From positions 1,257,994 to 1,321,993 of the forward strand of contig JBFXEV010000001.1 in NCBI GenBank assembly GCA_050179755.1: a stretch of 64,000 nt of DNA, written 5' to 3'. The position numbers and the translations under genes were made by a program. Of the stretch, positions 2,716 to 14,479 are shown in pieces. The DNA comes from Candidatus Babeliales bacterium. Lineage in GTDB: Bacteria > Babelota > Babeliae > Babelales > JBFXEV01. Numbering within the stretch: position 1 is the stretch's first letter; every line of letters starts with the position of its first letter. The notes under the pieces were generated by a model, which ran no database searches, was not told where the DNA came from, and worked only from the letters and a program-made list of their open reading frames with translations.

Positions 2716-3651
2716 ATGCAGCAACAATTCACGCACACGCAACTTGATGTTTTGGCAACTTGTGAGCCTTTTTTAGCATCGCAAGATATTGCAGCCACGT
2801 CACTGATCACCTACAAACACGTACTTACTCAATTTGCCTTATGGTGCAAAGATAAAAAAATTACAACGCCTACTCGAATGACAATCTTGGAATACAAAGC
2901 GTTTCTTGAAAGTAGAAGATTAAGCGCGTTTACTAAGTCGCTCTATATAGTTCTTGTGCGTAGATTTTTTTCGTGGACGCATGAAAACAATATGTATCCT
3001 GACGTGGCGCATGGCATTAAAACCGCTCGCACCAAGCAAAAAAGCCATCACAAAGATTCGCTTTCTATTGCTGATATAAAGACATTGCTTGCTCATATTG
3101 ATCAAGGTACCTTACAGGGGCTGCGTGATTATGCGCTCATTAATATGTTAGTGCGTACAGGGCTTCGCATAAAAGAAGTGGCATCGTGTGAATTTTCTGA
3201 TATTGAGTCTCACCATGGTAGCTACCGGCTTTGGATACAGGGCAAAGGCAGGCACGGTAAAGATGAATTTGTAATTCTTACGCAAGCAACGCTTGCTCCG
3301 TTGCAAGCATATATTGCAGCGCGTAATCTCAAGCAAAACGCTCGAGCGCCCCTTTTTGCGTCGGTAAGTGACAAAAATTTTGGCAAGAAACTGACTACTT
3401 TTTCAATTTCAAGATTAATTCGGCAATATTACCAAAAAGCTGGCATTAAAACAAAACGCGTTACCGCGCACAGCTTGCGCCATACGTTTGGTGTACTCTC
3501 TATGCAAGCAGGAGCTTCGCTCCATGAAGTGCAACTTGCCATGCGCCATACCGCCCCCAGTACCACGCAAATATATCTTGGTGATATTGAACGGATTAAG
3601 CGCCTTGAAGGGGCGCCAGAGCATAAATTGAGTCAATTATTGGATACATAA
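2716..3651 (+). CDS. Tyrosine recombinase/integrase (XerC/D-like)
   Basis: Catalytic set present: TGLR, GKG, HSLRH, MRH, TTQIY; N-terminal SAM-like domain. Confidence 0.92.
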   Translation: MQQQFTHTQLDVLATCEPFLASQDIAATSLITYKHVLTQFALWCKDKKITTPTRMTILEYKAFLESRRLSAFTKSLYIVLVRRFFSWTHENNMYPDVAHGIKTARTKQKSHHKDSLSIADIKTLLAHIDQGTLQGLRDYALINMLVRTGLRIKEVASCEFSDIESHHGSYRLWIQGKGRHGKDEFVILTQATLAPLQAYIAARNLKQNARAPLFASVSDKNFGKKLTTFSISRLIRQYYQKAGIKTKRVTAHSLRHTFGVLSMQAGASLHEVQLAMRHTAPSTTQIYLGDIERIKRLEGAPEHKLSQLLDT

Positions 3652-6823: not shown

Positions 6824-7525
6824 ATGAACTCAACCTTTTATTCAACACATATGGCGCGCCGCATAGAGCAATTTATGTACAAAGTATATGGTTGGATGTT
6901 TGCAGGGCTTGCAATAACTGCAGCAACATCATTTAGCTTGTTCAATTTCTTCCCGCAAATAATGGTTGCCATACTCACCAATCAGATGCTTTTTTGGGGA
7001 TTGTTTTTAGCGCAAATTGGCTTGGTAATGGTGCTATCGGCTGCGTTGCAACGATTAAACTTTGTAACTGCGGCATTGATGTTCATTCTCTATGCTAGTT
7101 TGGTTGGTATAACATTATCGCCAATATTCTTGGTGTATACGTGGGGATCAATCTATACCACGTTCTTGATAACGAGCGGTATGTTTGGCGCAATGGCCCT
7201 CTATGGCTACTACACTGAAAACGATCTTACCAGTTTAGGCAATATTCTCCTTATGGGATTAATTGGTCTGCTACTTGCTGGATTTATTAATAGATGGGTT
7301 GGCAGCTCACAAACTGATTTTTTACTCTCTATTGGTGGCGTGATTATCTTTACTCTTTTGACAGCGTATGACGTACAAAAGATTAAAACCATGAGCACGT
7401 ATGCTGCAATGCATGAAGAGTCAGAAAGTAAAATTGCTATTCGTTGTGCTTTAACACTGTATCTTGATTTTATTAACTTATTCTTATATGTATTACGCTT
7501 TATGGGTAATAAAAAAAGAAACTAA
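6824..7525 (+). CDS. Bax inhibitor-1/YccA family membrane protein
   Basis: About 7 TM helices; KVYGWM, AYDVQKIK and ALTLYLDFINLF signatures. Confidence 0.92.
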   Translation: MNSTFYSTHMARRIEQFMYKVYGWMFAGLAITAATSFSLFNFFPQIMVAILTNQMLFWGLFLAQIGLVMVLSAALQRLNFVTAALMFILYASLVGITLSPIFLVYTWGSIYTTFLITSGMFGAMALYGYYTENDLTSLGNILLMGLIGLLLAGFINRWVGSSQTDFLLSIGGVIIFTLLTAYDVQKIKTMSTYAAMHEESESKIAIRCALTLYLDFINLFLYVLRFMGNKKRN

Positions 7526-8670: not shown

Positions 8671-10230
8671 ATGGCACAGAAAGCACTCAAATATGTAGTT
8701 CTTATTCCGCTTATTATCTTAAGCGTAATTTCCTTCAAGTTATTGTATAAAGCACCTGAAACAAAAATACTACTTAATCAAACAACCAATGGCGATGAAA
8801 CCCGTTATATAGATAAGCGAGGTAGTTTTGGGAAAGGACTTAAAAAAACAAAAGAAGGCTTAGTTGACCCAGAAGCCTTTGCACAAGTAGTGCGTACTGT
8901 TAATACGCGCAGCATAGAAGAATTTAATAAAATCCCGTGGGGCGTACAACCACCACTAATTATATATAATACGTTGCGCTGGGCTATTGCTGAAAACGTA
9001 ATGGGTAAAGAAGTTTGGCTTCAAGTCACCCCACCACCGCCAACCGTTGCTTCTTCTGAAAAAGCAAGTGAAGTAGTAGAATTATATTGGCATGCGTTGC
9101 TGCGTGATATTCCTTTTACACAGTATGCCACAAATGAACGAGTAGCAGTAGCCACTGAAGATCTTTCGCGTTGTTCAGATTTCAAAGGCCCTAAAGTTAA
9201 TGATAAAGTAACAGCGCAAACACTTTTCAGAACAACGTTTGATGGGGTTCTTGAAGGCCCCTACGTTTCACAATTTTTCTATTACGATATACCACTTGAA
9301 GATGAAGCAAAATTATCACAAAGATATACTACGCAGCAAGCTACTCTTTCTAACGAGTTTATGACATCGCTTGAGGAATGGCGCTTTATTGAATTAGGCA
9401 ATCAACCAGTGCGTAAGATAACGTATGATCCAAAAAAACGTTATATATGCACCATGCGTGATTTGGGCAATTATGTGCACATGGACCCGCCTCAATGGCA
9501 TTTTTTATGCACCCAACTTATTTTGTTAGGTTTTGGGCAAGAAGCCTTAAAGCAAGGAGCGCCAGCACTTACCCCTTCATTGCAACCAGCACAAACTGAA
9601 TTTTGCAAATTGCATCTTGGTGGCTTAGTATCATTGTGCACCGAAATGACCTCTCGCGCTGCATGGTACCAAAAATGGTTTATACATCGCTCGTTGCGTG
9701 CAGAGGAATATGCCTATTTAGTGGATCAACAAATTAAAAATATCTTTGACGCTGGGTTACATGAAGACGTGATTAATTCGCAAGCTGCGCAAGAAATTTT
9801 TGCATTGAATTCTCAACTTAATAATGGCGAAGGCACCTATTTACTCCCTCAAATGTATCCTGAAGGTTGCCCGCTGCATCCATCTTACCCTTCTGCGCAT
9901 GGTTCGGTTGCCGGTGGGTGCATTACTATATTAAAGGCATTCTTTAATGAAGATTTTGTGTTCGCCAAGCCTGTGATTCCTAATGCCGATGGTTCTGCCT
10001 TAGAAGCTTATAAAGGTGAGCCGTTGACCATTGGGCATGAACTGAATAAGTTTGCCATGAACATTGCCTTTGCCCGCAACATGGCCGGCGTGCATTATCG
10101 CTGTGATGCGGTGGAAGCTATGCTAATGGGCGAGAAAATAGCTCTTGCATTGCTTGCAGATTGGGCAAAAACAAATAATATGCATTTTACGCTTAAAAAG
10201 TTTGATGGCACATCAGTTTCTATTGGCTAA
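8671..10230 (+). CDS. Vanadium-dependent haloperoxidase (PAP2 superfamily)
   Basis: AWYQKWFIHRSLRAEE, HPSYPSAH and RNMAGVHYRCD vanadate-binding motifs; ELYWHALLRDIPF; N-terminal anchor. Confidence 0.85.
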   Translation: MAQKALKYVVLIPLIILSVISFKLLYKAPETKILLNQTTNGDETRYIDKRGSFGKGLKKTKEGLVDPEAFAQVVRTVNTRSIEEFNKIPWGVQPPLIIYNTLRWAIAENVMGKEVWLQVTPPPPTVASSEKASEVVELYWHALLRDIPFTQYATNERVAVATEDLSRCSDFKGPKVNDKVTAQTLFRTTFDGVLEGPYVSQFFYYDIPLEDEAKLSQRYTTQQATLSNEFMTSLEEWRFIELGNQPVRKITYDPKKRYICTMRDLGNYVHMDPPQWHFLCTQLILLGFGQEALKQGAPALTPSLQPAQTEFCKLHLGGLVSLCTEMTSRAAWYQKWFIHRSLRAEEYAYLVDQQIKNIFDAGLHEDVINSQAAQEIFALNSQLNNGEGTYLLPQMYPEGCPLHPSYPSAHGSVAGGCITILKAFFNEDFVFAKPVIPNADGSALEAYKGEPLTIGHELNKFAMNIAFARNMAGVHYRCDAVEAMLMGEKIALALLADWAKTNNMHFTLKKFDGTSVSIG

Positions 10231-11957: not shown

Positions 11958-12062
11958 TTCTTGGCATGCATCGCGCAATTGCTTGCTCTGCAAGATATCT
12001 TTTTGGTAGACTTTTTACAATATTAAATACATTAATTTTTGTAAAAACAAAAAGGACCGCAA

Positions 12063-14441
12063 GTGATTAAACGACTATTTTTCTTCATCCTTATCTTGTG
12101 TTGCAATGCTGCAGCAATAGCTCAAGAATATGGCGTTGCCATTCCAGTCTCTTTTGATCCTCAAGCACAAGAATGGTCTGTGTTGCTTGGCCTTCAGCAA
12201 GATAATCAATGGTGGCCATTCCGGGAGCAATTGCAGCAAGGAGAAAAAGCAAATGTTGCAGCCCAACGTGCTTTAAATACCAAAACAAATGGTGTCTACA
12301 ATATTTCTATTACTGGAGTGCCATGGGAAAAAATAGGCAACACGTTTTTTCATCTTGTACCAGTAGAATTTATTTCAGGATCAAAGTTATATAACTCAGC
12401 AACCAGTAAAGCAGTTTCTGACTTTGTATGGATCCCCGCAAAACATCTTTTGCAAAAAGGCACAATTAAACCCCATAAAGTGAAAACAAATACAACTGTT
12501 GGTGAAAGCTTTGTAGATGCTTTTAAAATGCTTTGGCCAAAAAAGCAGTATGAACTTTCGGCTACACAACAAGCTGCACCCACCACAAAAGCAGGAACTG
12601 GTACACAAACACCACTTGGTGCCACTACAAAGATAATGGGCAATCAAGGAACTCAATGGGGAGGCAATGCCGATTCCATTTATTTTTATGTAAAAGATGC
12701 ACCATATTATGAATTTACCAATTTCTATGAACAAGATATAAAAATTGATGGCAAAGTTTGGCCCACAAGTGAGCAATATTACCAAGCAATGAAATTCACG
12801 GATAATAATTTGCAGGAAAAGATACGCCAATTTAAATCTGATGCTGCAGGTTCTGGCCCGCGTAAAGCTTTTGATTTTGCTCAAAAAAATAAATCGTCTG
12901 TTCGTGCAGATTGGCAACAAATAAGCCTTGATACTATGAGAAAAGCCGTACGAGAAAAATTTACACAACACAAAGGCTTGGCCAATCTTTTACTCTCTAC
13001 TGGCACTAAAACTCTTGTGGAAGCTGCAGGCGGCAATGATGACTTTTATGGTGCTGGTGCTGATTATAATGGCAAAAATTGGTTAGGTCGCATTCTTATG
13101 GAAGTGCGCGATGAGTTGCGACAAAAGAAAATTCCATCGCCTGCTGCAGTGGCAGTAGCCGCACATAAACTACAAACACCTTCAAGTGTATTACTTTCTC
13201 AAGCGCTTAAAAATCTAGAAACAAAACTTATAGATCTTCAAGATTCATTGCACGGTGCTCAAAAAAAAAGTAGTCTAACAAGCTCTCTTGAAGAACAGCG
13301 AGAAGTATTTAATCCGTTTATGCATGTAACAGGTATTTCTGAAAGTTCTTTTAAAAAATTAAGTGAAAACCAAAAGCACGCACTTAAAAAAGGAAATGCC
13401 TTCTTAAATCAGCAGACAAACGCAGTCTGGAATATGGGCACTGTTGATATTGCTTCTGTTGAGACATTACGTAAAACAAAAAAAGATGGCAAGGGTAGCG
13501 TATTTAATGTAATTGAAGGTGTGGATACGCCATGGAATCACTGGTTTAGAGAATATGTTGATGTTACTGCACTACAAGCAGATCCCTCCAATAAAGATGC
13601 TGTGTTTCAAGTAGCTTCAAATTTTAATGGCCTTGAAGGTTCTGGTGCTCCACATGAAGGTATTATGCCTTATTTAAACCCAAATCTGTATGTGCAAGGA
13701 GAGGCGGCAGCAATTTCTGCAATGCCTGGCATTATCTATCGCATGTATTATATGCCACATCAAGTAAATGGTAAGATATACCAAGGGCAACTACAAGAGC
13801 AACTCAATTTGCTTGAGCAGTTTACTAGTGGGCAGCATAAAATTCCTGTGCATGATGGCTATATTGGCAAAGTGCCAGACATAGAGGCATTTGCAAAATT
13901 ATCCGACATAGAATTAAAGCAGCTTGCAGGTAACGTACATATAGCATTCCACCAAGATATTCAAGTTTCTAGTGGCCTGGGACCACTTAAAAATGAATTG
14001 CCAACTTATAAAGCAATAAAAGTTAGCAATCCAAGTCAACGCATTAATCAAATATTTGCAGCAGCAATGAACCCGTATCAACACAATGTAAATTCTGCAG
14101 GATTTAAAAATCTTGCACAGATGCTTTTGTATGCAGCGTACGAAGGCGGCTTAAAAAGTGCATATGCACACGGTAAAAAGAAAGTATTTTTAACTTTAAT
14201 TGGTGGCGGCGTATTTAAGAATGACCTTTCATGGATCACGCAAGCAATTGAAGAGGCGGTCAAACCATTTTTAACGTATGGTAATATGGAAATTAATCTT
14301 ATTGTGTATTATAGTGGCGATTATAAGAACAAAGATTTAGCTGCATGGAATAATTTTGAAGCTAAAATGGCAGCGCTTGTGCAAAAAAGCGGTGGAGAGT
14401 ATGTGCAGTATAAGGCTGATGGAAAGCATATTAAAAAATAA
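12063..14441 (+). CDS. Exported multidomain protein: degenerate Nudix-like + NADAR (YbiA-like) + macro/PARG-like domain
   Basis: NADAR motifs FTNFY, WPTSEQYYQAMKF, EKFTQH, GKNWLGRILMEVR; C-terminal FQVASNFNGLE...QG and LTLIGGGVF; signal peptide. Confidence 0.8.
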   Translation: MIKRLFFFILILCCNAAAIAQEYGVAIPVSFDPQAQEWSVLLGLQQDNQWWPFREQLQQGEKANVAAQRALNTKTNGVYNISITGVPWEKIGNTFFHLVPVEFISGSKLYNSATSKAVSDFVWIPAKHLLQKGTIKPHKVKTNTTVGESFVDAFKMLWPKKQYELSATQQAAPTTKAGTGTQTPLGATTKIMGNQGTQWGGNADSIYFYVKDAPYYEFTNFYEQDIKIDGKVWPTSEQYYQAMKFTDNNLQEKIRQFKSDAAGSGPRKAFDFAQKNKSSVRADWQQISLDTMRKAVREKFTQHKGLANLLLSTGTKTLVEAAGGNDDFYGAGADYNGKNWLGRILMEVRDELRQKKIPSPAAVAVAAHKLQTPSSVLLSQALKNLETKLIDLQDSLHGAQKKSSLTSSLEEQREVFNPFMHVTGISESSFKKLSENQKHALKKGNAFLNQQTNAVWNMGTVDIASVETLRKTKKDGKGSVFNVIEGVDTPWNHWFREYVDVTALQADPSNKDAVFQVASNFNGLEGSGAPHEGIMPYLNPNLYVQGEAAAISAMPGIIYRMYYMPHQVNGKIYQGQLQEQLNLLEQFTSGQHKIPVHDGYIGKVPDIEAFAKLSDIELKQLAGNVHIAFHQDIQVSSGLGPLKNELPTYKAIKVSNPSQRINQIFAAAMNPYQHNVNSAGFKNLAQMLLYAAYEGGLKSAYAHGKKKVFLTLIGGGVFKNDLSWITQAIEEAVKPFLTYGNMEINLIVYYSGDYKNKDLAAWNNFEAKMAALVQKSGGEYVQYKADGKHIKK

Positions 14442-14447
14442 AAAAAA

Positions 14448-14470
14448 GGGGATAGAATCTCTCTATCCCC
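14448..14470. terminator. Hairpin between convergent genes
   Basis: ggggataga-atctc-tctatcccc preceded by an A-tract. Confidence 0.7.
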
Positions 14471-14479
14471 TGGGTTGTA

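Follow-up and report, generated by a model that had tools for sequence, protein, structure and literature searches.

A gene in the genome of a Candidatus Babeliales bacterium encodes a protein of 792 residues in which a predicted Sec signal peptide, a dead Nudix domain, an intact NADAR domain and an unnamed macrodomain of PARG fold are joined in one chain. The gene occupies positions 12063..14441 of the window, by which we mean the whole stretch of DNA analysed (64,000 nucleotides; contig JBFXEV010000001.1, positions 1,257,994 to 1,321,993 of the forward strand). We propose, with a probability of about 0.5, that this predicted-exported protein is a two-site ADP-ribose eraser acting in a presumed protist host; two erasers with a binding accessory are, in our best reading, preferred over three enzymes. 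The original prediction had described three folds linked to one chemistry in a secreted effector. The reading frame and every motif quoted in it are present and all three folds were recovered, but only two can be tied to ADP-ribose chemistry, the Nudix catalytic residues being lost. A secreted effector that counters ADP-ribosylation remains the best reading, judged only from genomic context and homology. The features of the gene are as follows.

12063..14441, plus strand: single open reading frame (ORF) of 792 residues with a GTG start, read directly from the sequence
12063..12122, plus strand: predicted Sec signal peptide, residues 1-20, with a basic start, hydrophobic core and A-x-A, called by eye and with a crude hydrophobicity script
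12126..12557, plus strand: pseudo-Nudix domain, residues 22-165, isoelectric point (pI) 9.1, from a structure-cluster match and profile comparisons
12225..12290, plus strand: degenerate Nudix box, with E61 and R69 kept and G1, E16, E19, E20 and G22 replaced by E55, A70, T73, K74 and N76
12558..12656, plus strand: low-complexity Thr/Ala/Gly/Gln linker, read directly from the sequence
12657..13127, plus strand: YbiA-type NADAR domain with E237, K244, E320 and D326, from Pfam, TIGR and structure alignment
13191..13262, plus strand: leucine-heptad helix at the fusion joint, a terminal module of exported proteins of the phylum by positional and shuffle tests
13296..14438, plus strand: unnamed PARG-fold macrodomain, residues 412-792, from an AlphaFold model, Foldseek and VIA-align
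13605..13637, plus strand: family motif FQVASNFNGLE, strand 3 and loop 1, with near-invariant S519 and E525, from the family alignment
13695..13703, plus strand: QGE, matching the MacroD GGV turn in the alignment; most of the family has QGP here
14190..14222, plus strand: LTLIGGGVFKN, diphosphate-binding loop 2, from the family alignment and a profile match

The clear NADAR domain seen earlier at about 12678-13121 was borne out by a PF08719 match to residues 207-353 (12681-13121; E-value 1.9e-32, 113.2 bits against a cut-off of 35.1), by a TIGR02464 score above cut-off and by a match to Escherichia coli YbiA (E-value 2.4e-28). In PHROGs and PADLOC it was the sole domain of the protein to find a match. 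E237, K244, E320 and D326 correspond to E43, K50, E125 and D130 of the P. nicotianae NADAR (8BAU), read with a two-residue offset from the residues given in the accessible part of PMC11543638, and these four are invariant in 17/17 family members. The glutamate that defines the YbiA subfamily is present as E320. The protein thus shares fold, E/K/E/D set and subfamily glutamate with YbiA-type NADARs (YbiA 2B3W; 8BAU; PF08719), but differs from them in lying behind a signal peptide and a pseudo-Nudix domain, in having no adjoining DarT or rib gene and in the replacement of two pyrophosphate-binding arginines. A DarT1-NADAR toxin-antitoxin pair was ruled out by the lack of an adjacent darT and by E320 being Glu rather than Asp. 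According to the accessible sections of the literature, NADARs reverse guanine-linked, and some also cytidine-linked, ADP-ribosylation of DNA and RNA (PMC11125620, PMC12945103, PMC11833690), all of those described hydrolysed guanine-linked ADP-ribose in vitro, and the RNA marks removed by NADAR complement those removed by PARG-type enzymes (PMC11833690). Beside the corresponding locus of a congener (G121), a second signal-peptide NADAR (L091:10142-11107) is without the subfamily's catalytic glutamate.

The C-terminal domain, earlier compared by eye with macro and PARG domains, does have a macro fold. An AlphaFold model built from a 125-row alignment reached a predicted local distance difference test (pLDDT) score of 96.5 and a predicted template-modelling score of 0.94, and its top Foldseek matches were bacterial PARGs (E-value 1.3e-6). 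The nearest viral models were uncharacterised Yasminevirus and Bodo saltans virus proteins (E-values 4e-19 and 4e-17). In VIA-align the closest structure was the PARG of D. radiodurans (Z 15.7, root-mean-square deviation 3.7, 235 aligned residues, 12% identity), with MacroD types next at Z 12.9; PARGs, MacroDs and viral macrodomains were among the first 16 rows (Z 11.4-15.7). Loop 1 is extended and loop 2 reads G-x-G-V-F-x-N, as in bacterial PARGs (D. radiodurans 5ZDA/5ZDB, T. curvata 3SIG; PF10021). The diphosphate loop G[VIA][YF] is kept in 114/125 rows, the query included, and an aromatic residue stands in loop 2 in 123/125.

Unlike bacterial PARG, the family does not have the signature GGGx(6-8)QEE (0/125 rows; motif as given in the accessible part of PMC10951314) and has its own FQVASxFNxLE and QG[PE] instead. 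The MacroD motif Nx(6)GG[VLI]D (from the available portion of PMC6500376) and the WDxx[SA]xPGN loop of MavL/DUF4804 (again from PMC10951314, as far as accessible) are each found in 0/125 rows. Family members had no match in Pfam, NCBIfam, PHROG or PADLOC and no PF10021 hit; PF01661 gave weak scores only, in 4/40 members. A single comparison of the domain with MacroD gave 7.7%. In an ungapped profile scan, QGEAAAISAMPG pairs with the MacroD segment SGVAGAIAAALG at a score of 10.1 (next -1.8) and with the PARG segment QAQEEDLCRGSG at 2.6. The best PARG register places A548 and A549 at the catalytic glutamates of PARG, so the PARG likeness first proposed holds for the fold and not for the catalytic residues, and the 'QG' noted earlier aligns with the MacroD GGV turn. 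QGE as a restored QEE was rejected (register -6.6 versus +2.6 for the best). Aligning loop 1 with the PARG and MacroD sub-alignments in hhalign gave no usable alignment, and neither did PARG against MacroD. Conservation across the 125 rows is highest at S519 (124), E525 (122), Q545 (123), R560 (124) and Q663 (125); from this and its loop-1 position, E525 may be considered a candidate catalytic acid. The arginine-specific macrodomains MavL and Larg1 of Legionella (DUF4804) are likewise divergent and exported by a protist parasite, and their weak language-model likeness to the domain (0.82) serves as a lead only. Our protein differs from them in its Sec rather than Dot/Icm signal, in having no partner transferase found and in the missing WDxx[SA]xPGN. 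MavL/Larg1 were not among the Foldseek and VIA-align matches listed, where a missing row does not exclude structural closeness.

This macrodomain family is widespread: 1,622 clusters at E-values up to 0.001, 50/261 genomes of the phylum (often with several copies each), 21 viral loci, several of them from giant-virus bins, and 65 plasmid records, 52 of these conjugative; none of 50,697 phage records matched. Canonical PARG, by comparison, occurs in 3/261 genomes. A stand-alone relative with 55% identity falls in one cluster with a protein that is named 'Candidatus Dependentiae bacterium'. On IncF plasmids of E. coli and Salmonella, stand-alone members (L230:4809-5822, L231:4782-5777 and L232:4779-5783) have traX on one side and repA on the other; they are annotated as hypothetical and have no signal peptide. 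Partner domains were scanned in 62 + 24 long proteins that contain relatives of the domain. MacroD domains accompany it in P0007, P0122, L134, L140 and P0186, canonical bacterial PARG domains in the close kin P0007, L134 and P0186 and in a second kin pair (L139, L144), and NADAR, in the opposite order to the query, in P0107. Other partners are unrelated (ankyrin, phosphatases, UCH, Ras), and most of the proteins have no partner family. The two viral proteins L139 and L144 are longer than 2,200 residues and combine a UCH deubiquitinase-type domain, the family macrodomain and two bacterial-type PARG domains. The family and NADAR occur together in 18/261 genomes against 9.4 expected, a count in which kin are not independent and genome size is a caveat. 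Genomic context ties the family to ADP-ribose.

Two neighbouring observations concern other exported domains of this kind. In genome G129 a signal-peptide NADAR gene immediately precedes the gene of a canonical PARG that also has a signal peptide (L089:946-3315), and the two products have similar C-terminal tails. In the source genome, a signal-peptide MacroD-type macrodomain with a leucine helix (G000:C1:260987-261799; L087) is a third exported ADP-ribose-related domain.

The call of a Nudix-like N-terminal domain without catalytic glutamates also held. Sequence searches found no Nudix match (N-domain profile against Protein Data Bank sequences, members against Pfam), and the fold call rests on an Atlas model and profile links: the Nudix Pfam family was named in 5/7 Atlas structural matches and a sixth was named Nudix, with template-modelling scores of 0.64-0.77. 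The profile of the domain retrieves proteins with an intact box from the same phylum (L073, L076, L078, L079). Proteins of this type gave 98.5% in hhalign, which is not independent since the same profile had found them; six Nudix proteins defined by Pfam alone gave 21.5% (E-value 0.001) with the box in register. For the active box we take the form Gx5Ex7REUxEExGU, an assumption that agrees with L073 and L076. Among 19 family members E16, E20 and G1 are each kept in 0/19 and E19 in 4/19. The domain shares fold and a gap-free box alignment with Nudix hydrolases of the WxDFGG...REFxEET type, present in these four proteins and in giant viruses, but it is without their catalytic glutamates and box glycines; because the glutamates are lost across the family, we regard it as a pseudo-enzyme. 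The best hits of the intact-box relatives are Ap4A hydrolase, NudI and MTH1, with ADP-ribose pyrophosphatase last of 39 hits. Given the loss of E16 and E20 in 19/19 members and this preference of the intact relatives for general Nudix enzymes, Nudix cleavage of ADP-ribose is not inferable. The pseudo-Nudix has a pI of at least 8.8 in 16/19 members, compared with 21% of 362 exported-protein controls, a charge that fits nucleic-acid binding.

The N-terminal domain was found in 18/261 phylum genomes by single-sequence search and in 35/261 by profile. Sixteen of the 18 non-self ORFs from the single-sequence search run on into NADAR and end after 340-450 residues, and 3 further such two-domain ORFs were seen among 12 weaker loci examined. 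Signal peptide, pseudo-Nudix and NADAR together are a conserved two-domain protein of 20 genomes, the source included. Elsewhere, L079:982-2094 (G226) is a signal-peptide protein that reverses the state of the query, its Nudix box being intact and its NADAR degenerate, and L074:694-1995 (G229) follows a signal peptide with two tandem pseudo-Nudix-like domains and a RING finger, an architecture that suggests the pseudo-Nudix is a binding module.

The Leu-heptad segment is real (13191-13262), and what was first taken for a linker turns out to be a recurrent terminal module. It closes 9/23 two-domain proteins (shuffles: mean 0.3, maximum 3), opens 17/148 proteins of the macrodomain family (shuffle mean 0.9) and closes 12/148. 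Across the 432 signal-peptide proteins of the genome, the density of the helix exceeds that of the interior 12-fold at the mature N-terminus and 6-fold at the C-terminus. A position-weight matrix for the helix could not tell exported proteins from the rest; that distinction came from the positional and shuffle tests alone. In about 12/432 signal-peptide proteins, and in many proteins of relatives, the helix directly follows the signal peptide or forms the extreme C-terminus; such genes in G000 include 260987-261799, 835882-836556, 839225-839824, 839955-840470, 1389154-1390692, 653708-655141 and 1102153-1103754. Export tag, oligomerisation and membrane binding are candidate roles.

The three domains occur together in the query, in P0003 (63% identical) and in G121 of the same genus only. 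In G121 the gene is in three pieces, which is likely an assembly error because the breaks lie at homopolymer runs and a neighbouring gene is split too. The macrodomain was seen in 0/80 metagenome loci (80 of 243 kept). In a quick tree of 70/125 macrodomain rows plus P0003, the query and P0003 are sisters nested among stand-alone proteins. The tree of the first two domains places them in a clade (100/99) with two two-domain proteins, and a single clade of fused forms is rejected there (approximately unbiased test, p-AU 9e-6). The sister of the query is the two-domain P0159 (72-73%), which together with that rejection argues that the macrodomain, which usually stands alone, is a detachable module. 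The 'all-in-one' architecture is limited to one genus-level clade, patchy there and labile.

Babelota (Dependentiae) are described as protist parasites with Sec-exported effectors, and Sec signals were reported on 44% of the proteins of one isolate in the accessible part of PMC6561590. The source genome, one contig of 1.525 Mb with 39% GC, has three ADP/ATP-translocase-family genes and, by Pfam, many signal-peptide ankyrin genes; together with the description of the phylum these point to a host-dependent lifestyle in what is presumed to be a protist. The signal peptide claimed in the original prediction was seen again by eye and with a crude hydrophobicity script only, a test passed by the query and by 14/19 two-domain relatives. 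Two members of the macrodomain family, P0100 and P0126, begin with an acidic leader that ends, by eye, in a double glycine, a hint that another lineage may use a different export route.

In the mechanism we propose, the protein would leave the cell by Sec export through its signal peptide. NADAR, with its four intact catalytic residues, would cut the N-glycosidic bond of guanine-linked, perhaps also cytidine-linked, ADP-ribose on DNA or RNA, and the basic pseudo-Nudix might keep the substrate, nucleic acid or nucleotide, in place, a role proposed for the basic N-terminal extension of DarT1-linked NADARs. The macrodomain would bind ADP-ribose via loop 2 and may cut NADAR-resistant linkages (O-linked, phosphate-end, 2'-OH or protein-linked); E525 would replace the QEE of PARG as the acid. 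The chain itself may have arisen in one genus-level clade when a common two-domain gene and a common stand-alone macrodomain gene were joined at their shared leucine helix; its patchiness suggests a fusion easily gained or lost.

Several points weigh against this two-site eraser. The enzymatic activities proposed here are predictions. The macrodomain may only bind, because all three described catalytic motifs are absent; its loop-1 register depends on the ungapped scan, hhalign giving no alignment there, and the profile-profile match to PARG spans only the C-terminal 97 columns. In NADAR, the pyrophosphate-binding R79 and R93 of the oomycete enzyme are Q274 and S288, positions that vary across the family, and the genome, of which this is the only NADAR, has riboflavin genes. 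P0159, the nearest relative for the first two domains, is without the macrodomain. A Sec signal peptide takes the protein only to the periplasm, and 460/1,414 ORFs of the genome (about a third) carry one by a crude count, so that it says little in favour of a host target. Members on plasmids are without a signal peptide, and the macrodomain family is therefore not effector-specific. No report of protists ADP-ribosylating invading bacteria was found in the literature searched by listing.

An alternative is that the protein, in the periplasm or vacuole, acts on soluble molecules rather than on marked macromolecules: ADP-ribose or NAD derivatives that are signals, toxic by-products or salvageable nucleotides, with the pseudo-Nudix as a small-ligand sensor. 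Such a role has been argued for tandem NADAR-Macro proteins of DNA viruses (PMC9503650, in its accessible part) and accords with a Sec route that stops in the periplasm, with nucleotide import through translocase-family proteins and with a Caballeronia plasmid member that has Sir2 and WYL genes nearby. The consistent basicity of the pseudo-Nudix speaks against it, as do the giant-virus members, whose fusion partners include PARG and deubiquitinase-type domains that act on macromolecules; we hold this to be a possibility of the minority kind. It is rather improbable that NADAR is the sole enzyme and the macrodomain an ADP-ribose reader concentrating it on marked targets. The missing catalytic motifs, the alanines at the glutamate positions of PARG and the viral fusions to active-type MacroD and PARG, in which the family domain could supply binding, would suit a reader, whereas the conservation of loop-1 Glu (122/125), Ser (124/125) and aromatic loop 2 (123/125) and the frequency of the macrodomain as a stand-alone protein would not.

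A role in which the protein guards the bacterium from ADP-ribosylating toxins that co-resident microbes or viruses produce, or reverses the bacterium's own transferase effector, has precedents in MavL/Larg1 of amoeba-associated Legionella (PMC10951314) and in a PARG that shields bacteria from an RNA-modifying toxin (PMC11833690), each as described in the accessible text, and stand-alone members do occur on conjugative plasmids. Against this, no transferase lies beside the gene, and Pfam models for DarT, PARP, ADPrib_exo_Tox and ART found none in the genome, in a search that had no positive control and does not show absence. We consider this unlikely. ARH/DraG was likewise not found in the genome, by a search whose control matched in 7/14. 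A riboflavin-intermediate N-glycosidase like YbiA, in an incidental fusion, would explain the TIGR02464 score and the riboflavin genes, but is very improbable given the signal peptide and the distribution of RibA, which is found in 14/261 phylum genomes, in 2/20 with the two-domain gene family, in 4/49 with any NADAR and not in G121, which has the same triple architecture. The riboflavin genes of the source genome (G000:C1:798026-802849) comprise RibBA by Pfam and RibH and RibE-like genes by eye. Finally, three active ADP-ribose-removing enzymes, the strongest form of the original prediction, can be set aside as hardly credible: the three folds are confirmed, yet the Nudix metal-binding glutamates are lost family-wide and the best hits of the intact relatives do not indicate ADP-ribose specificity.

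The gene is single-copy in the genome. Its 792-residue frame is intact and without differences in contigs of runs X1-X3, which are possibly the source of the same DNA, and a genome-contig scan gave a single short match, judged spurious. A single-sequence fold of the whole protein was unusable (pLDDT 36). An ankyrin gene ends 106 nucleotides upstream, the downstream gene is convergent, and the neighbours comprise ankyrin, PAP2-like and unknown genes, with ankyrin genes surrounding the locus. An Rfam search of the window had no match, and a promoter scan was at chance level (9 versus 8.1). Two short elements flank the gene.

12053..12056, plus strand: Shine-Dalgarno-like AGGA, 6 nucleotides 5' of the GTG start, read directly from the sequence
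14447..14471, no strand assigned: hairpin with a terminator-like score on both strands, between the fusion gene and the convergent gene, from a consensus scan only

Upstream of the effector-like cluster, the window also contains a tyrosine integrase gene (2716-3651) and a Bax inhibitor-1 family gene (6824-7525). The 519-residue protein at 8671-10230 has a hydrophobic N-terminus and a PAP2-superfamily match and is 73% conserved in G121; by eye, its motifs resemble those of a vanadium haloperoxidase.

NADAR-macro fusions are already published: tandem NADAR-Macro(-SLOG) proteins with Nudix co-occurrence have been described for DNA viruses (PMC9503650), and Legionella is known to export divergent macrodomain erasers (PMC10951314), both according to the accessible portions. 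The viral proteins likewise combine, within a single chain, two folds that process ADP-ribose, and do so in a setting of host-parasite conflict; giant viruses carry the query's macrodomain family itself. Unlike them, the protein described here is bacterial and exported and has an unnamed macrodomain class and a dead Nudix. The macrodomain family, the secreted pseudo-Nudix-NADAR family and Babelota ADP-ribose erasers were not found in the mostly open-access literature, supplements aside, in which an unnamed family is hard to find by words.

The two families brought to light here matter more than the triple fusion itself. One of them, that of the macrodomain, is large and unannotated and is without any described catalytic motif, and its chemistry is directly testable without culture of the parasite, because small, soluble stand-alone members occur on E. 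coli plasmids. As a speculation that we hold tentatively, the domain could be an undescribed catalytic class built on the loop-1 Ser/Glu, used by protist parasites, giant viruses and F-like plasmids against ADP-ribosylation; together with the secreted pseudo-Nudix-NADAR family it might reveal that protists mark the DNA or RNA of invaders with ADP-ribose as a form of immunity, and the leucine helix might be a tag for a second export step in Babelota. The role of ADP-ribosylation in protist defence is hardly studied. Erasers hint at writers, and an exported NADAR with intact catalytic residues in 20 genomes of an obligately protist-parasitic phylum, with a second eraser-fold family in 50, suggests ADP-ribosylation pressure inside protist hosts.

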